The notes below the pieces were generated by a model. That model saw nothing but the letters and a program-made list of their open reading frames with translations, was not told the origin of the DNA and did no database searches. Of a stretch of 64,000 nt of DNA, positions 86-58,040 are shown piece by piece; the stretch's first letter is position 1, and each line of letters opens with the position of its first letter. Source of the stretch: an uncultured virus (IMG/VR IMGVR_UViG_3300035162_003174) (taxonomy: Duplodnaviria; Heunggongvirae; Uroviricota; Caudoviricetes); IMG/VR virus record IMGVR_UViG_3300035162_003174; one strand, given 5' to 3'. The translations under genes and the position numbers were made by a program.

Positions 86-1180
86 CTATATTGAACTATT
101 TCCTTGTGGGTACTCTACCAACATCTTATCAATATCTTTTCTTTCGGCTTGTATTAAGTAAAAACACTTAACTTTAGAACTTAAAATGTTTGAATTTCCT
201 ACGATTACAGTATTATCAACAATATCCTTAACAAATAAGTTTTGATGTGACCCAATAGGTGTTAACTGTACCGTTATAGTAGTTTCATCAACTAATTCTA
301 ACCAATAATCCGGTAACTCAATAACTTTACCATTCTCTAATTTACCTCTAACATAAACTCCGTGTTCAGGACCCTCTAATGAACCATGTCTTAAATTAAA
401 ACCATCTTTAGTTGGGTGAGGTATTAAGAACGACTTAGACGTGGCTTGTAAATTACCCAGACCATCTACTTCAAAATTTAGTTTACCATTTTGGTCATAA
501 CCTTCAATCTGATTAACGGTGGTATTAGAACTACTTCGTATTTGAAGAACCGTAGTGTATGAATTATCCGCTTCGAGATATACTCTTGGTCTGGTACCAG
601 TAATAATACTACTATTAGATTTATATATTTTTGTCGCTTCAGCACTTGTGGCTGCAAATGATAAATCATTAGCCGATTGAGTTAATATTCTTGCTGAACT
701 TAAATTACCATTTGAACCATATATATTAGTATTTCCCGCAGATGTAATAAATCCAGCGTCGTTATTAAATGATGATATCTTAATATTTCCTGGCGCAATT
801 TTAAATTGACTGTTAGATGAATTTACAACAGTAAAGAAATCAGCATCACTCGGAGTTGTTGTCGTAGATAATTCTGAAAGGTCAATCGTTAACGATAAAT
901 TACCCCCTAACGATACGGAAGCGGTTGACGTATCAATACCTATACCCGCAGTTACACTAAACGATGAATTGTCAAGTGAAGCGTTTGGTATTGTATTAAA
1001 ATCAACATTACCCACTCCATCAGTCATTAGGACTTCTTTAGCCCCACCATCCGAAGTTGGGAACGTATAGTCGCCGTTAAATGTTATCCCCCCACCAGTA
1101 GCAATGTTTAATCGTACACTACCTCCTGATGTTAGGTTTAACCCTGTTGAATTACTGTAATATGTTCCGTTAGTGGCCAT
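86..1180 (-). CDS. Tail fibre / receptor-binding-type protein with a conserved phage C-terminal domain
   Basis: 364 aa, G/S/T/N-rich. It carries a YTFPTSDG..VLMTDG fibre motif. The C-terminal KSFLIPHP..LRHGSLEGPE..VY.RG...LPDYW block is commonly seen at phage fibre ends. Confidence 0.6.
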   Translation of the reverse strand: MATNGTYYSNSTGLNLTSGGSVRLNIATGGGITFNGDYTFPTSDGGAKEVLMTDGVGNVDFNTIPNASLDNSSFSVTAGIGIDTSTASVSLGGNLSLTIDLSELSTTTTPSDADFFTVVNSSNSQFKIAPGNIKISSFNNDAGFITSAGNTNIYGSNGNLSSARILTQSANDLSFAATSAEATKIYKSNSSIITGTRPRVYLEADNSYTTVLQIRSSSNTTVNQIEGYDQNGKLNFEVDGLGNLQATSKSFLIPHPTKDGFNLRHGSLEGPEHGVYVRGKLENGKVIELPDYWLELVDETTITVQLTPIGSHQNLFVKDIVDNTVIVGNSNILSSKVKCFYLIQAERKDIDKMLVEYPQGNSSI

Positions 1181-1206
1181 TTTTTATTTTTTTTGTTTTT
1201 GGCTTT

Positions 1207-1228
1207 GGGAGAGAAATTAATCTCTCCC
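1207..1228 (-). promoter_or_regulatory. 5' leader hairpin, copy 1
   Basis: Perfect stem GGGAGAGA-TTAATT-TCTCTCCC followed by AAAGCCAA. It lies between the TATTTATC motif (1246-1253) and the ATG at 1180. Confidence 0.55.
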
Positions 1229-1245
1229 GTTAATTATAGTTTATT

Positions 1246-1253
1246 GATAAATA
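1246..1253 (-). promoter_or_regulatory. Putative late promoter motif TATTTATC
   Basis: Recurrent intergenic motif on the coding strand upstream of structural genes. Confidence 0.55.
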
Positions 1254-1289
1254 GTTTCAATACAAATTATATTGATTTTTTTATCTTAA

Positions 1290-3398
1290 TTATATTACTT
1301 GTACCCAACCGAATGATTTAAAGATATAAACCCCTTCATCATTATCTGTTTGATAAACCATCAAACCTGTTGCTGGACTAGAAATTGCGATACGTTGGTC
1401 TTCTATCATCCTTGGGAATAAGAAACCTTGAGTAGTTGACGATACCTCTAATTTCGCAGATACTACCGGTACATCAGTACCGATACCAACATTGTCATTA
1501 ACATTATCGTAATGGAAATCTCCACCACCAATTTCAAAATCACCACCTGTAAACCTTAATAGGTTACCAGATTGAGTAACTGTTCTTGCTCCTGCCAAAG
1601 TACCATCATCTGTATAGATGTTTTGAGATACTACCGAACCATCAATACTAAGGTCAAGTAAATTAGCCGCTCCATTAATTATTACTGAACCATCAGCAGA
1701 TGCGAAGGTTAGTGATTGACCTAAACCAATAGCTGGACTAGCACCTGTAGTACCAACAAATGTTAATGAATCATTCACTAATCTTGCGTTTGCAATAGAA
1801 CCATCAATTAACGCTGCCGTTACTGATGCTCCCGCACTTACCGTGAAATTAACTTCAGACGAATCAACAAAGTTACCACCCGTAAATACATCCGCTAAAA
1901 CTTCAGTATTAAAGTCAGAAACCTGAGACGCCGTAATATCAATTGTCTGAGAACCCGCCGCAGTTAATCTACCTTGAGAATCTACTGAAAATGTTGTCGT
2001 ACTCTGAGCATTAATAGGGTAAGATGCTGAATTTACTCCTGTATCATCTAAATTAATTTCAACTGAACCACCAGTATTAACAGATGTAAGAGCTGTTCCA
2101 CCTAAAATTGAGATGGTACCACCTAAGTTAATCGTTGATGAGTCATCATCAGCGGTAACTGTAAAATCAAACCCTGAAGCTGTTACATCAGGTTTACCGT
2201 TACTTAGTTCTAAGGTTAATGTTCCCGTACTTAATGTTGCTCCTGTTACATATGAATCCGAAACCGATGCCGCGTTAACCGTAAGGTCAAATGTACCTGA
2301 ACCGTTATCAGCAATTACTACTGAACTATCAGATGAACTGTACGTTATTGTTCCACCTAAATCTACCGAACCAGTACCTGTAGTACCAGCAGTATTAATA
2401 GATGAGTTTACTAAAACTCCTGATACGGATGCTCCGTTAACTACTGTGAAGTCAATACCTGACGCTCCTGTAGTATCTGTAAAGTTAGCCGCTGTAAAGA
2501 TAGCCGTTTCAGATGCTGCCGTAAAGTCAGAAACTTGAGATGCCGTAATATCAATTGATACGTCAGACGCCGCAGTTAATTGACCTTGTGCGTTAACTGT
2601 AAATGTTGCCACTGTATTAGCTGAACCATAAGAACCTAAAGTTACCGTAGTATTATCAAGGTTAATTTGCATGGTTAAAGACCCATCGTCAGCAGTTGAA
2701 ATACCTGTACCACCTAAAATATTAAGTCTATCACCGTTATACATTTGTGATGTACCAGCATCCCCATTTGTGAACCAAGATAAACCTGTCACATCTACAT
2801 TACTTCCATCATTTCTCTTAAGTCTTAATGTTCCATCAGATGGTGTGTTAATTGTTCCACCTGTTACGAATGTATCTGTTCCGTCAATACCTGTAATTGT
2901 AATGTCAGATTCTAATCCTCCGTTTATCGCTAAGGTAATTGTACCTGCGTTGTATGTTCCTGAAGTAATGAATGGAAGCTCAAAAGTTCCATTTACAGTA
3001 CCTGTACCTGAACCTGTAAGTCCCCATGAATTATCATAGGACATGTCTGTTAATGCGTCGATAGTGAATGATGAATTACCTATCGTGTTATACGCGACTG
3101 TTACTACGTTTGATGTCTCCGTTACGCCTGTTACTACCGTACCTACGGCGATATCATTACGTGTCTGGACGACACCGTTAGCGTCAGATACTAAAAAATT
3201 AGTATTTGAACTGGACGCCCCCAAACTTTCGATTCTAAACCCTGTCGTTGCTCCTGATACACTTTTAAAGTGAAAGTCAGTACTCGGAGTCAGTGTGTTG
3301 AAACCAAAATCACCTGCGCTGGTGATGAATTGTCTCTCTACTGTTCCCGTTGACAGTTTTAAACCGTTTGCTTGTAAATTTAAACCATTTGTTGCCAT
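1290..3398 (-). CDS. Tail fibre-like repeat protein
   Basis: 702 aa with VTGGT/GTLTL beta-repeats and a 204-aa-period internal duplication (IDITASQVSDF twice). It ends in a GIGT..SAKLEVSST.QGFLFPRM..QR.AI.SPA.GLMVY module. Confidence 0.65.
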   Translation of the reverse strand: MATNGLNLQANGLKLSTGTVERQFITSAGDFGFNTLTPSTDFHFKSVSGATTGFRIESLGASSSNTNFLVSDANGVVQTRNDIAVGTVVTGVTETSNVVTVAYNTIGNSSFTIDALTDMSYDNSWGLTGSGTGTVNGTFELPFITSGTYNAGTITLAINGGLESDITITGIDGTDTFVTGGTINTPSDGTLRLKRNDGSNVDVTGLSWFTNGDAGTSQMYNGDRLNILGGTGISTADDGSLTMQINLDNTTVTLGSYGSANTVATFTVNAQGQLTAASDVSIDITASQVSDFTAASETAIFTAANFTDTTGASGIDFTVVNGASVSGVLVNSSINTAGTTGTGSVDLGGTITYSSSDSSVVIADNGSGTFDLTVNAASVSDSYVTGATLSTGTLTLELSNGKPDVTASGFDFTVTADDDSSTINLGGTISILGGTALTSVNTGGSVEINLDDTGVNSASYPINAQSTTTFSVDSQGRLTAAGSQTIDITASQVSDFNTEVLADVFTGGNFVDSSEVNFTVSAGASVTAALIDGSIANARLVNDSLTFVGTTGASPAIGLGQSLTFASADGSVIINGAANLLDLSIDGSVVSQNIYTDDGTLAGARTVTQSGNLLRFTGGDFEIGGGDFHYDNVNDNVGIGTDVPVVSAKLEVSSTTQGFLFPRMIEDQRIAISSPATGLMVYQTDNDEGVYIFKSFGWVQVI

Positions 3399-3447
3399 GT
3401 TATTATATTTTTTTAATTGGTTATTATCCTCTTAGTATTAGTTAGGC

Positions 3448-4920
3448 TTATAGTATACTTACCCATCCTAAAGATTTATACATATATAAACCTTCCTCAG
3501 CATCCACAGTAGTGTTTGTACAATACAGTAAAAGACCAGGTAAAGGTGTGGGTATGTTTTCTCTCTGAGTTTGTGTCATCCTAGGTATTAATAACCCCTG
3601 ATTTTCACTCGCTAACTCTAATAAGGCGCATACAGGTGACGTTGTTCCTGTACCTATTGACACTCCTGTTCCACCACTAAATGTTATGTGATGAGTGTCT
3701 TGTTCTACGATACGGTCACCTTCAAGTGTTCCGTCATCCGTATATATATTAGTATTTATGGCTCCTAACCCTGTTATTGTAGATGTGGTACCATCATTAT
3801 TATTTAATGTAATTGTACCACCACTATTATATGTACCTCCCGTTACCTCAGCGGCAAATCCTGTGGCAATAAAATCCACTCCGTCATTTAACCCTAAAGT
3901 TAATTCTTTTGATACTTGACTATACGACATTCCTGTCACATAAGTGTCTTCTGTAGTTCCCGTAGTGAATCCTGAGATTGGTAAACTACCACCATCACTT
4001 CTATTTAAAGTTAATATCCCAGAGGCATTATCGTAAGTACCACCACTAACTACAATATCTGTAGGTACTATCCATTGCCCATCACCCCTATAGAATGTTG
4101 TTGAATCAGGAGTACCACCATTATTCATTAAACCAATGGTCATCTCGTTAGCACTAATCGCCGAATCGGTAGCTATTCCCGCTCCTCCTGATGTAATAAC
4201 GCCAGCAAACTTTAAAGTAAATCCGTCAACAACATCAATCGGTACTGCCGGAGCTTGATTATCACCTTCAGCAAACCAACTCGTGTAAGAACTAGAACTA
4301 CCCGTACTGAATCCTGTAACGTTGAATGTTCCACCCGTAGTATTAGTAAAAATGGCTGTACCATTACTATAGGTACCACCTGTTACTGTAACATCGGTAC
4401 CATAAAATATTCTCCATCTGGCGTTTGTTCGTGTAACTCCACTAACTCCTTCTATTGAGGAGTCTAACCATGCGTTAACTAAAGCTAAACCTGGTGTTGT
4501 GTTATCGAATACTGTATAACTTCCTTCGAACGGGTCGGTTTCAGTCGCTCCACTCGCAGCATTAAATAAAGTTTCATAATTAGGTATAATATACTGATAA
4601 ACTGTATCTGTTTCATGAACGTAAACTTGCATACCTAATCTACGTCTACCCGATGTTATACCATCATTTTCAATGGTTAACTTACTAGGTACAAATCCAA
4701 GGGGAGATTTACTATAAAAAATAGGTATAGTATTACCACTATTATATATAACCCCACTCGCCCCAAAAGTTTGGTAATTTAAATTAGAAAGTGACCACAC
4801 TTCCATATAACCTCCAGCACCTAATACACTAAAGTTAGTCCCTATAATTTCTACGGGGGAAACAACGTTTGTTTGTGGTAATATTACTCCGGAACTAGGG
4901 TTTCTATATATAAACGACAT
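3448..4920 (-). CDS. Tail fibre-like repeat protein, paralogous C-terminus to 1290..3398
   Basis: 490 aa with an RRRLGMQVYV module and four VTGGTY-type repeats. It shares NIYTDDGTL and the ..PRM..QR..I..P..GL..Y....EG.Y..KS.GWV C-terminus with the neighbouring gene. Confidence 0.6.
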   Translation of the reverse strand: MSFIYRNPSSGVILPQTNVVSPVEIIGTNFSVLGAGGYMEVWSLSNLNYQTFGASGVIYNSGNTIPIFYSKSPLGFVPSKLTIENDGITSGRRRLGMQVYVHETDTVYQYIIPNYETLFNAASGATETDPFEGSYTVFDNTTPGLALVNAWLDSSIEGVSGVTRTNARWRIFYGTDVTVTGGTYSNGTAIFTNTTGGTFNVTGFSTGSSSSYTSWFAEGDNQAPAVPIDVVDGFTLKFAGVITSGGAGIATDSAISANEMTIGLMNNGGTPDSTTFYRGDGQWIVPTDIVVSGGTYDNASGILTLNRSDGGSLPISGFTTGTTEDTYVTGMSYSQVSKELTLGLNDGVDFIATGFAAEVTGGTYNSGGTITLNNNDGTTSTITGLGAINTNIYTDDGTLEGDRIVEQDTHHITFSGGTGVSIGTGTTSPVCALLELASENQGLLIPRMTQTQRENIPTPLPGLLLYCTNTTVDAEEGLYMYKSLGWVSIL

Positions 4921-36389: not shown

Positions 36390-36417
36390 ATGGTAACGAC
36401 ACGAATGTCGTTACCAT
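36390..36417 (-). terminator. 12-bp stem, UUCG-loop hairpin between ssb and recA (partial terminator or mRNA stabiliser)
   Basis: Minus strand ATGGTAACGACA-TTCG-TGTCGTTACCAT with only a weak U tract. Confidence 0.65.
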
Positions 36418-53765: not shown

Positions 53766-54617
53766 TTATACTTCTTTTTTATTTCCTCCTTTAGTTAAAT
53801 ATGTTTTAACTGGTTTATCTTTATATTCTTTATTTAAAAAGGCTTTAATTTTTTCTACATTGCCTGGGTCGTCATCAGAAAACCCAATCATTGGTACAAA
53901 ATTATTTTTTATATCATTTTTAAGAAAGGCTTCTTTACCAATTTTCTTACTTATATCTCTAACATAAGAGATAAATTCACGTAAAGCTTTAATCTTCCCT
54001 TCTTCAGGGTCAGCAGCATCACCTTCACCGTAAGTTACGGGGTAATACCTATTAAGGTCCAAATAGTCGTTAATCATACCGAAGTAATTTTCTCTGTCGT
54101 CACCCGTAATATTACGATATTTTTTAAGGTTGTCAATTAAAGATTCCTTACTAATACCATTATGGTCAGTAACTATCATATTATAAATAGCTTCACGTAA
54201 AACTGAAGGTGTGTGACCTCTAGCGGTGATTATTGAAAAAATGGAACCCCCATTTATCGCTTCAACAAAATCACCCCATGATGGACCTGGTTTAGCTAAC
54301 ATAGAATCAATTATAAATGCGCTATCACCTTGTATACCGAAATTTTTATAAGGGTCCTTAGAGTATCCCACAATCATCTTACCGTTGTATTCAAAAGGCT
54401 CTTTACCTATCATACTTCGATAATCTGCAAAATCTTCAGTAGACATACCTACCTCTTCATCATTGTCAGTTAATACTAAAATTTGGGTAGGCATGGTGGC
54501 GATGTTATCGTCCCAGTCGAATGCATAATATTTTAAGTCTGGATTACCTTCAGGGTCAAACCCTTCACATAGTAACCTTTCGTTAAAAAATTCCCTTATG
54601 ACTCCCTTTAAACTCAT
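53766..54617 (-). CDS. HAD-superfamily hydrolase/phosphatase-like protein
   Basis: Motif I AFDWDD, motif II IITARG, conserved Lys (EEGK) and motif IV GFSDDD..N. Confidence 0.7.
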   Translation of the reverse strand: MSLKGVIREFFNERLLCEGFDPEGNPDLKYYAFDWDDNIATMPTQILVLTDNDEEVGMSTEDFADYRSMIGKEPFEYNGKMIVGYSKDPYKNFGIQGDSAFIIDSMLAKPGPSWGDFVEAINGGSIFSIITARGHTPSVLREAIYNMIVTDHNGISKESLIDNLKKYRNITGDDRENYFGMINDYLDLNRYYPVTYGEGDAADPEEGKIKALREFISYVRDISKKIGKEAFLKNDIKNNFVPMIGFSDDDPGNVEKIKAFLNKEYKDKPVKTYLTKGGNKKEV

Positions 54618-54766
54618 TATCTATTTGGTTTCTTATTAATTTTCTCTATTAATCTTTCTAGTTGAGTTTCAGAAATAACAATATTCTGAGGTTTTTCTGA
54701 GAAAGACTTACTACCGTTAGACTTTACGTCTAAAGCTTCGTTAAGTATTTTTTTCTTAAATTCCAT
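54617..54766 (-). CDS. Small 49-aa protein not in the ORF track
   Basis: MEFKKKILNEALDVKSNGSKSFSEKPQNIVISETQLERLIEKINKKPNR. It has an A-rich leader and an upstream TATTTATA, and its stop overlaps the next start (TAATG). Confidence 0.75.
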   Translation of the reverse strand: MEFKKKILNEALDVKSNGSKSFSEKPQNIVISETQLERLIEKINKKPNR

Positions 54767-54795
54767 TTTATTTTTATTTAAACTTTTAATTGGCT

Positions 54796-54821
54796 AAGAA
54801 GGGAGAATTAACTCCCCTCTT
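54796..54821 (-). promoter_or_regulatory. 5' leader hairpin, copy 2
   Basis: Minus strand AAGAGGGGAG-TTAATT-CTCCCTTCTT followed by AGCCAA, directly after TATTTATA (54825-54832). Confidence 0.55.
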
Positions 54822-54842
54822 TATTATAAATATAGTTAGTTA

Positions 54843-57800
54843 TTAAATATCTTCAAAAGATGCTCCTGTAGGAGTAATCAAAAATTCAATATCAATAAAT
54901 TCAAGTGCTCTTGTTGGTTTCAAGTAAATTTTACCTGTTAACGTATTAGAGTCCAAATCTTCAGGTGTACCTGAAACTGTAACTCTAAAGTCAATTAAAC
55001 CTCTGTCTCTCCTAATACTATCTAAGATAGGGTTAACTGAGTCTAAGAACTCTTGTCTTACTTGTTCGTCATTTTGTTCGAACAATAATCTTACCGCCAC
55101 AGCTGAAATTAGTTTACGTGCTTGTAGTAATAATCTTCTAACGTTTATTCTATCAAGTGCAGATTCTTTAACTTGTAAAGTTTTGTTACCCCATATTACA
55201 GTACCAACATCAGAGAAGGTTGCAATTGGGTTTAATCTACCTTGGTATAGTGTATCTCTATCTTCTTGTGTTAATTTCTTACGTGCTTTAACTGAGTTAA
55301 CTAAACCTCTTGTGTAACCCGCTGATGCGAACCATGGGAAAGCTATATTATCAGTTAATGCTAAGTTCCTAACAACCTCACCTGTTGGTGGGAGATATAT
55401 TTGTGTATTATTAACCGTGTCTCTCGTAAGTATCCATGGATAATAAGTTGCCGTGTAGTTAGAGTCTATTCCCGTATCTACTAAATTATCTACCGCCTCT
55501 TCAGGGTAAATAAAGTCAGTATCAAAACTACCTAATGAAGGTGTAAACATTTGATAGTCAGGTGTAGTACAGATATAAATTGAATCTGCTCTATCCTGTT
55601 CAACCATATCAATTGCTGACTCAACTAAGTTTGAGTTATTTACATAATCAATACCTGTTGTAGTAAACACATTAATGTTAACTGATTCAGGATTATTAAA
55701 TGTATATTGACCCCATAAGTAAGCGTAATAATCTGTGTTAGCCCAAGTTAATTGGTCTGGTCCTACAATTTGTTTAAATGCTCCCCATCCTGTTGCGGTT
55801 GGATAACTTATCGATGGTGCCGCCCCTTTTCTAAATCCTGCAGCTCCTAATTGATATCTGTCACCGTTAGTTCTATATTGTCTATAAATATCCCATCCAT
55901 CGAAACCTCCCGATGGAACTACTGTGAACTTACGTGCATTTAATCTAAAATATGGACTACCTTCAGTTGGTTCTGAATCGAAACTCGCGTCTCCAACTTC
56001 AAAAGCCGTTTCACCTGACGTAACATAATTAGAAGAAATCCTAATAACCGTTGCTCCTGAATCCATATGGTAACCTTTAGTAAGGTAACCCCATGGTTGT
56101 GAATCAGTTGCAGTCCCTAAATTTGTAGGGTTTTGTTTTCCTTTATACTGTAAGAAATCTGAATCAATCCCTACGGTGTTTGAAACACCTAAGAAAGTTC
56201 TTCTTACTCTATCACCTGAACTTCTCGATTCATTGTCACTACCTGTCGCCGCTCCAAATGGTGGGTTCCAAATAACTTCACCTGGTGTGTCGTATTTTGT
56301 TTTATATTCTAAGAATGGTGAATTAACTCCTGAGTATTGTCTAGTTTGGTATCCACGGAAACCACAAGGTAGTGAGTCATAAGGTGCGTCCTCATTCATC
56401 TCTAACATTATAAATCTTGACCTTAACTCAAACTCCCCATTAGATGTACCAATTCTTTTAGCTACAAAACTATTTTGATTCATATCCATCGTACAGTTAG
56501 TAAATTTCTCTAAAACTACTGGATTAGCGTCGGTATCGAAGAAATCACGTACAACTACATCGAATGTCCCATTATTAAATGAAATGTTCATAATGGAAAC
56601 TTTTATCTCTCTATTTGCGGTGTTACCATCAGATATCGTTAATACCTTAAACATATTGTAAATTTGATTACCCCTTAATTCAGAAACGAAATAAGGTGTT
56701 TCAGGTGTTTGGTATCTTTCTAAGTACCACCCAATACTTGTATTGGTCGCTAAATCTTGTCTAGCACTTGGTAAATCAATTAGTTCACAACTTAATCCAC
56801 GGACTTTACCTAAACGATACCCCGTATTTAATAAGTTATAATATTCTTCCTCAACAAATAATGGTACCTCTGATTTCGGTTTCGCAAAATTTGATTTACC
56901 AAATACCTTTGAAAGGTAGTTTGAACTAGATAAGTTAAATGATGTTTGGAATATAAAGTTATCTCCATCGGTAGTTGTTGCAGAGACTGCAAAAGTCGAA
57001 AAAGGATTAGTGGATATACCAGAATACGCTCCTGTACAATCTAAAAGAACGTCAGTTACCCCTGATACCTCATAAACTGGTCCGTCATCATTTGTATAGT
57101 TATCTATACCTCTTGAACGTAAAGTTGCAACTACCACATCGTGGTAACCGCTATATGGTGTACCCGAATAGTTTGTTACATAAACATTAGCCGTACCTTG
57201 GAAGTTAAGACCTACATTCGTCATTGATGTTACACCCATACCAAAACCTGTACCGTTATACACGTTAGCGGTTTCAGTAAATAATGCGTAATACCATGGG
57301 TCATTAACCGATGCGGTTAAATCACAAGATTCAAAAAGAATATCTTCCACATTAAATACATTAGTATTAACTGACCCAAGAGCTCCCGTTTGATTAACCG
57401 TATCACCTGTAGTACTATTAAATGTATCCGCACTTACCGACCCCCAAAAATAAGAGGTTTCTCCTGAAGTAGTGTTGTTTACAATCTCCGAATATAAGTA
57501 TGTATTCATATCACGAATGATAGAGGACTCTCCACCAGTATACGTAGTGTATGGATTTGTTATCACATCTTCTATTTCTGAAGGTAATGAGGTGTAGCTG
57601 GTTACCTCAAGACTTGTGGATGTTCCTGAAACTCCTGTAAATGAAATAGCAAAAGGTCCAGCTACTCCCGTAGCGGTTGTACCTGAGCTATCTAAGTTAC
57701 CGATAGTTGTTATTGACCATGAAGGTCCTGCGTCGTACCCTGATAAACCAAGTACTCTAGTAACAAACAATTGATTTGATTGTTGTAGATAAGACTTTGC

Positions 57801-58040
57801 TATGTAAGCTGCCTCGTACTTAGGTATCTGAGTATTTACGAATTTAGTTGGATTTGTACCACCAAAATAGGATTGGAACTCATCGTAATTAGTTATGAAA
57901 ATCGGCTCGAACGCTGGTCCCGAAATTGTTTCACCTACTAACCCAAGAGTTGTGACTCCCACACTTTGTGCTACAAAACTTAAATCTCTTTCTGATGTAT
58001 AAACACCCGGAGATACAAATACTTTGTTAGATGTTGCCAT
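54843..58040 (-). CDS. Tail sheath protein (T4 gp18-like)
   Basis: N-terminal SPGVYTSERDLS. C-terminal PWFASAGYTRG, RDTLY..RLNPI, WGNKTL, LDRINVRRLL, FEQND and IYLKPTRALEFI. Confidence 0.97.
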   Translation of the reverse strand: MATSNKVFVSPGVYTSERDLSFVAQSVGVTTLGLVGETISGPAFEPIFITNYDEFQSYFGGTNPTKFVNTQIPKYEAAYIAKSYLQQSNQLFVTRVLGLSGYDAGPSWSITTIGNLDSSGTTATGVAGPFAISFTGVSGTSTSLEVTSYTSLPSEIEDVITNPYTTYTGGESSIIRDMNTYLYSEIVNNTTSGETSYFWGSVSADTFNSTTGDTVNQTGALGSVNTNVFNVEDILFESCDLTASVNDPWYYALFTETANVYNGTGFGMGVTSMTNVGLNFQGTANVYVTNYSGTPYSGYHDVVVATLRSRGIDNYTNDDGPVYEVSGVTDVLLDCTGAYSGISTNPFSTFAVSATTTDGDNFIFQTSFNLSSSNYLSKVFGKSNFAKPKSEVPLFVEEEYYNLLNTGYRLGKVRGLSCELIDLPSARQDLATNTSIGWYLERYQTPETPYFVSELRGNQIYNMFKVLTISDGNTANREIKVSIMNISFNNGTFDVVVRDFFDTDANPVVLEKFTNCTMDMNQNSFVAKRIGTSNGEFELRSRFIMLEMNEDAPYDSLPCGFRGYQTRQYSGVNSPFLEYKTKYDTPGEVIWNPPFGAATGSDNESRSSGDRVRRTFLGVSNTVGIDSDFLQYKGKQNPTNLGTATDSQPWGYLTKGYHMDSGATVIRISSNYVTSGETAFEVGDASFDSEPTEGSPYFRLNARKFTVVPSGGFDGWDIYRQYRTNGDRYQLGAAGFRKGAAPSISYPTATGWGAFKQIVGPDQLTWANTDYYAYLWGQYTFNNPESVNINVFTTTGIDYVNNSNLVESAIDMVEQDRADSIYICTTPDYQMFTPSLGSFDTDFIYPEEAVDNLVDTGIDSNYTATYYPWILTRDTVNNTQIYLPPTGEVVRNLALTDNIAFPWFASAGYTRGLVNSVKARKKLTQEDRDTLYQGRLNPIATFSDVGTVIWGNKTLQVKESALDRINVRRLLLQARKLISAVAVRLLFEQNDEQVRQEFLDSVNPILDSIRRDRGLIDFRVTVSGTPEDLDSNTLTGKIYLKPTRALEFIDIEFLITPTGASFEDI

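Follow-up and report, generated by a model that had tools for sequence, protein, structure and literature searches.

Two spacers on the minus strand of this phage DNA, termed sites A and B, carry look-alike hairpins, which raises the question of what part of them is kept in related phages, to which neighbouring gene it belongs and what it may do. The window (the whole stretch analysed, 64,000 nucleotides) is part of a virus record of 72.6 kb rated 24% complete by CheckV, which places the genome near 300 kb. Its genes code for tail sheath, tube, baseplate and replication proteins (Pfam, PHROG), and the phage, a myophage of about 300 kb, has relatives with a bS21 gene. The gene of bS21 was found above the cut-off in relative G001, which carries all four sites described below (A–D), and below the cut-off in relative G002; it was not found in the 24% of the genome represented by the window's own record. 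Large phages encoding bS21 are known from Bacteroidetes (PMC9723584), and with its bS21 gene G001 would fit these phages. The family is an abundant and widespread one of uncultured giant aquatic phages: about 4700 stored stretches match the sheath query, and the end of the sheath is less than 47% identical to GenBank phage records. Five records retrieved with the site A gene, one of them matching distantly, are fragments in which a sheath search gave no match.

Both minus-strand sites are laid out as in the original prediction, with coordinates, stems, loop, AGCCAA and ATG confirmed. The features are the following:

86..1180, minus strand: gene downstream of site A, 364 aa, matching PHROG 17490 and 28536, where function is unassigned
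1201..1204, minus strand: AGCC tag of site A, separated from the stem by 2 nt and from the ATG by 20 nt (AGCCAA at 1204-1199, ATG at 1180)
1207..1228, minus strand: site A hairpin, 8-bp stem (1228-1221 with 1214-1207), 6-nt loop TTAATT, no U-tract
1247..1253, minus strand: TATTTAT box at site A, promoter-like, a separate genome-wide element
1290..3398, minus strand: gene between sites C and A, 702 aa
3426..3448, minus strand: site C, AGCCT overlapping the stop codon of gene 3448..4920, with AGGAT following at a variable distance
3448..4920, minus strand: gene upstream of site C, 490 aa
53766..54617, minus strand: gene of a 283-aa protein with a DxDxN motif
54617..54766, minus strand: 49-aa ORF downstream of site B, missing from one large clade of relatives
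54792..54795, minus strand: AGCC tag of site B, 25 nt before the ATG (AGCCAA at 54795-54790, ATG at 54766)
54796..54821, minus strand: site B hairpin, 10-bp stem (54821-54812 with 54805-54796) including one G-U pair, loop TTAATT
54826..54832, minus strand: TATTTAT box at site B, 4 nt before the stem
54843..58040, minus strand: tail sheath gene, upstream of site B (Pfam PF17482, PHROG 23)

The labels "fibre" and "HAD", given earlier to the genes downstream of the two sites, correspond to no named family in Pfam or PHROG. The product of gene 86..1180 is probably fibre-like, and a fibre role is likely for the genes at A, C and D. The 283-aa protein has no Pfam or PHROG match and falls in Atlas clusters that are mostly unnamed; its DxDxN motif is one that we take, from the motif only, to be HAD-like. 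Sites A and C each follow one of two paralogous genes (the 702-aa carboxyl terminus is 41% identical to the 490-aa gene product over 117 aa), and the genes downstream of these sites start alike. The fibre-like genes (86-4920, minus strand) share short amino-terminal starts (MATNG) and carboxyl-terminal ends (GWVxVL/I), and their counterparts in relatives code for about 270 to 2300 aa. The 49-aa ORF has a stretch, ISETQLERLIE, that is similar to the way several further proteins of the family begin.

For site A, 97 loci were found through the carboxyl terminus of the upstream gene product and kept only if the next gene starts like the orthologue, unrelated, truncated and duplicate loci being dropped. 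All 31 distinct orthologous spacers have AGCC, with the GCC 2-3 unpaired nucleotides from the stem, and in 30 of them TATTTAT precedes the stem by 13-19 nt (18 nt in the window). None of 200 shuffles folds as well as the spacer (z -7.3), whose folding energy does not favour the coding strand (11 vs 16). That the stems keep pairing while their sequence changes holds here, 4 of 8 pairs being changed on both sides among 27 aligned sequences. The covariation score of 0.309 (0.190 after shuffling) was reached by 0 of 500 shuffles, for sequences selected with AGCC required and whose kinship can inflate the score, and a control slid by -2 is nearly as high (0.283). A second predicted helix, AU-rich, lies upstream of site A (1290-1240, minus strand) and overlaps the TATTTAT box.

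At site B, 80 sheath relatives, of which 2 are incomplete, yielded 65 distinct spacers from the other 78. All 65 have a GC-rich hairpin after the stop codon of the sheath gene, irrespective of the next gene and of the place of the box; in the window it starts 21 nt after the stop codon. The hairpin therefore belongs at least equally to the 3' end of the upstream gene, and its description as the leader of the downstream gene captures half of the picture. The spacer in the window, whose AGCC directly adjoins the stem (0 nt), folds better than all 200 shuffles (z -3.2), and the strand test on folding energy gives 23 vs 11. (A/T)GCC stands just 3' of the hairpin in 36 of the 65 spacers, in 35 of these at 0-4 nt from the stem. 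A second set of 35 new spacers, found through the 283-aa gene and counted by eye, has it in 24; one of them is identical to the window over the stretch shown. Low-depth RNA contigs, none of which covers site A, flank site B on both sides and none spans the spacer; a single one of 425 nt, with 99.5% identity and too low in depth to count as evidence, ends at 54818 inside the stem. A 12-nt palindrome (TTAAACGTTTAA) lies 3' of the GCC in many lineages with the small ORF (L002-L033) and is degenerate in the window (54789-54778, minus strand).

Stems and loops vary widely between the site B relatives. The TTAATT loop, originally taken as part of the element, is kept in 2 of the 65 distinct spacers and in 5 of the 27 sequences at site A; 33 different loops occur among the 65, which rules out the loop as a binding site. 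The GGGAG arm, another proposed part, varies freely in relatives and is likewise ruled out as a signal. Two relatives (L721, L733) have a C-rich 5' arm at site B and still keep AGCC.

Two further sites extend the series. Site C has GCCT..GGAT in 35 of 35 distinct relatives and no upstream hairpin in its spacer; folding is weak in the window (z 0.64), and the CCT may pair with AGG, possibly forming a short helix closed by a G.A mismatch. Site D, a hairpin with AGCC before a gene starting MAREF or MAKEF in 10 of 10 relatives, is not in the window, whose lineage is without such a gene at that place; it lies at about 14600-14640 in L237 (G001) and about 4400-4440 in L262 (G020), on the minus strand in both. 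The spacer sets of A, C and D were selected through the downstream protein and without regard to the motif, and in each of them GCC is fixed within AT-rich sequence.

What is kept across relatives is a strong stem of free sequence with (A/U)GCC within a few bases 3' of it, the GCC remaining constant while flanks, stems and loops turn over. The combination of hairpin and GCC exceeds chance because it is conserved at each site across relatives, and the notion of a conserved cis element common to two non-homologous loci was borne out in this form; the further copies and the conservation in relatives, whose absence would have spoken against it, were both found. The A of the tag's AGCCA form is not fixed past the GCC (AGCCA, AGCCT and AGCCG occur). 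The distance from GCC to ATG is highly variable (1-46 nt) and that from GCC to stem nearly constant. The element was found only inside operons, at four loci, with 3-4 loci per genome fragment, and the three AGCC-bearing spacers of the window's genome are all these sites. A promoter -10 box is an unlikely role for GCC, since many relatives have just 1-4 nt between it and the ATG; base pairing of GCC to the region of the start codon, or to bases upstream, fits only some sites (by eye); and a tRNA-like CCA end or RNase P site disagrees with the variable A and with the finding of no CCA-adding family in 17 partial genomes.

A covariance model built from site A alone, rather than from both copies as had been proposed, was run over 1.26 Mb; its three best matches outside the training set are two B sites and one D site, each of them weak (E about 0.1-2.5). 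The comparison with Rfam 15 gave no family at the gathering threshold, with 0 matches in the window, none at site A and a best E of 0.19, far below threshold, at site B. The motif is not described in the literature searched, supplements and most subscription papers being outside its scope. Part of the likeness between sites A and B is generic: hairpins of the type GGGAG..TTAATT..CTCCC occur in about 2000 viral stretches, among 120 of which, those listed, none has AGCCAA or TATTTAT, and TTAATT loops are also present in ordinary terminators of the phage family. A loose scan for wider spread returned mostly chance matches. The site-A-like pattern was found in 25 viral stretches, 5 of them from this phage family, and the 119 bacterial or archaeal matches listed show no excess of Bacteroidota (by eye), with 2 stretches meeting the intergenic filter. 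Note that the unrelated phages L356, L380 and L382 have a hairpin and TAGCCA after a stop codon, in which GCC pairs with an upstream GGC and lengthens the stem. Another hairpin of the window, with a UUCG loop and a short U tail, stands between the gp32-like and recA-like genes (36390-36417, minus strand), and relatives keep it at this position. The GCC element is a real, conserved and uncatalogued cis element that is narrower than first drawn and whose function is predicted.

The TATTTAT motif, also counted into the element at first, is a separate, strand-specific, promoter-like box found genome-wide: it is present in 199 of 437 co-directional spacers and its reverse complement in 35 (13 related genome fragments), which rules it out as a part of the element. 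It is also present in 17 of 27 spacers of the cultured Flavobacterium phage immuto 2-6A, in which the stretches read have no hairpin 3' of the sheath gene. The cultured Microcystis phage Mel-JY01 (L663), with an annotated bS21, has TATTTAT boxes too and, in the stretches read, a post-sheath hairpin with a box 3' of it and without GCC. The box may act as a late promoter. The T4 late promoter, read by gp55, is likewise a short strand-specific box before virion genes, with a different word.

The position of the box at site B bears on the role of GCC. The box is upstream of the hairpin in 17 of the 65 relatives and downstream in 18; GCC is found in 0 of the 18 spacers with TATTTAT 3' of the hairpin against 36 of the 47 without. 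The corresponding counts in the second set, by eye, are 2 of 10 and 22 of 25, giving for both sets GCC in 2 of 28 spacers where the box lies 3' (the exceptions are L711 and L716). In the tree the 18 spacers of the first set whose box lies 3' cluster in two main clades, so that few events stand behind the pattern, and GCC spans the deepest split. That GCC is mostly missing when a box follows the hairpin suggests that it serves a read-through message. At site A, where the box precedes the stem by 13-19 nt, transcription must cross the stem if the box is a promoter.

A stem of free sequence, a fixed GCC, the restriction to virion operons and the loss of most GCC where a new box has arisen together suggest an RNA boundary signal between certain virion genes, acting on the read-through message. 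The best reading, which we put forward tentatively and as our own analysis, is a signal for processing between cistrons and for 3' stabilisation, by which the ratios of virion genes would be set. A factor such as a nuclease would cut the long late message at or beside GCC, the hairpin would shield the upstream RNA piece after the cut and the downstream gene would receive a short new leader. A cut at GCC would leave leaders of 1-33 nt; most TATTTAT boxes lie less than 20 nt from the ATG. Upstream and downstream products would then be made in unequal amounts, for example sheath subunits in large numbers and the proteins after them sparingly.

This reading has a relative in the SRPS stem-loops of the cip-cel operon of Ruminiclostridium cellulolyticum, which both bring about a cut on the 3' side of the stem and protect the resulting pieces (PMC10311766, PMC4423207); the cut is independent of the sequence at the site and set by the stem (PMC10311766). 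Both systems place GC-rich stem-loops between operon genes for a multi-subunit machine, and stable stem-loops between co-directional genes of one complex are found here as in SRPS, the fibre role at A, C and D being a probable one. A further likeness lies in the cip-cel cuts, which often fall 3' of the stem, and in stem-loops that turn into terminators when U-rich. There the stem sequence matters, whereas here the stem is free and the 3' GCC fixed, and the phage element lies in a late region with a cut that is only predicted. What would be new here among known intercistronic stem-loop controls is an uncatalogued motif whose stem is free in sequence and whose 3' word is fixed.

Several observations count against processing. 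Cutting by a sequence-specific RNase should show as clear avoidance of its site; the coding strands are depleted of AGCC (0.65, against 1.08 for its reverse), AGC alone is as depleted as AGCC, late genes are no more depleted than other genes and the ratio in the window's own genome is 0.94, an avoidance too unspecific to serve as an RNase signal. The exclusion between box and GCC is weakened as support by coming largely from two clades and by having two exceptions. Site C, without an upstream hairpin, has nothing to protect the upstream piece, the folding energies of the two strands give a mixed picture, and the cip-cel precedent is one of cuts independent of the sequence at the site. The RegB, RegA, RNase III, CsrA and CCA-adding families were not found in 17 partial genomes. 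The coding DNA of cyanophage P-RSM1 (L517) shows an about tenfold depletion of AGCC, GGCT and AGCT, to the same degree for a word and its reverse complement, which suggests restriction-site avoidance.

A possible, if doubtful, alternative is a leaky non-canonical terminator or pause, at which the RNA polymerase, host or phage-modified, would stop part of the time, with transcription of the next gene lowered. The hairpin always stands 3' of a stop codon, as do the GC-rich hairpins of the family's intrinsic (Rho-independent) terminators shortly after theirs. The T tails at site B range from 2 to 8 T, with full U-tracts in some lineages, so that a continuum with terminators exists there, and relative L046 has a complete T-tract in this position and lacks GCC. 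The terminators of phiKZ, too, have a common fixed motif 3' of the stem, and terminators within 5' UTRs are reported in the same paper (PMC10914365). Like the present element, the terminator motif of phiKZ and 201phi2-1 (PMC10914365, PMC11512511) joins a phage-specific stem-loop to a short word that is fixed; it has a TTAT tail, fits an intrinsic terminator and occurs at tens of mapped 3' ends, in a phage with polymerases of its own, unlike the (A/T)GCC tail at about four loci, mostly without a U-tract, seen here. The claim that the element lacks the long U-tract of ordinary terminators was upheld: the 8 nt beyond the last G-C pair contain 0-5 T in GCC-class hairpins (median 2, n=11), while other co-directional hairpins, free of GCC in the case of the family's terminators, have at least 6 T (6-8) after the stem in 59 of 69 cases. 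The U-tract of about 7-8 nt of an intrinsic terminator is thus not a feature of the GCC class, although some site B relatives reach 5-8 T. Termination is further opposed by the tails at site A (0-1 T in 19 of 27 sequences, 0 T in the window), by the missing hairpin at site C, by the confinement of the element to four loci within operons and by the terminator scan, which makes no call at site B on the coding strand. The loss of most GCC where a new promoter-like box makes read-through unnecessary also counts against termination.

A translational operator is unlikely. A phage or host protein would bind single-stranded GCC by the helix and tune downstream initiation, the hairpin only stabilising RNA ends. 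This would cover site C, where GCC adjoins the downstream CCU/AGG pairing, and would agree with GCC lying 1-46 nt before the ATG, within reach of the ribosome in the clade without the small ORF; bS21 in relatives hints at translation control (PMC9723584). The GCC-ATG distance is, however, the one that varies, GCC-stem distance being nearly fixed, the loop is not conserved and no known repressor family was found in the partial genomes. Least probable of the alternatives, and improbable altogether, are ordinary stabiliser or terminator hairpins whose GCC at A, C and D was inherited by duplication of fibre genes and at B arose by coincidence: the paralogy around A and C, the lack of AGCC enrichment across spacers overall (19 vs 15.3 shuffled) and the E values of only 0.13-2.5 given to site B by the site A model would agree with it, but GCC stays while its surroundings change and persists across deep branches at site B, and the model's three best matches outside its training set are B and D sites.

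A more far-reaching form of the processing reading is a private sequence-addressed RNA code in which a phage-made factor would read GCC beside a helix and cut polycistronic late messages into short-leader mRNAs, the tag standing in, evolutionarily, for an internal TATTTAT promoter and setting virion stoichiometry, perhaps in connection with phage-bS21 ribosomes; we regard this extension as quite improbable. Were the element only a weak terminator variant, it would have little significance. Beyond a few models, little has been mapped of how large phages draw virion parts in differing amounts from long late operons, and in these phages a motif present at four loci may represent a small, mutable handle on the ratios of virion parts and point to a putative factor that reads it.
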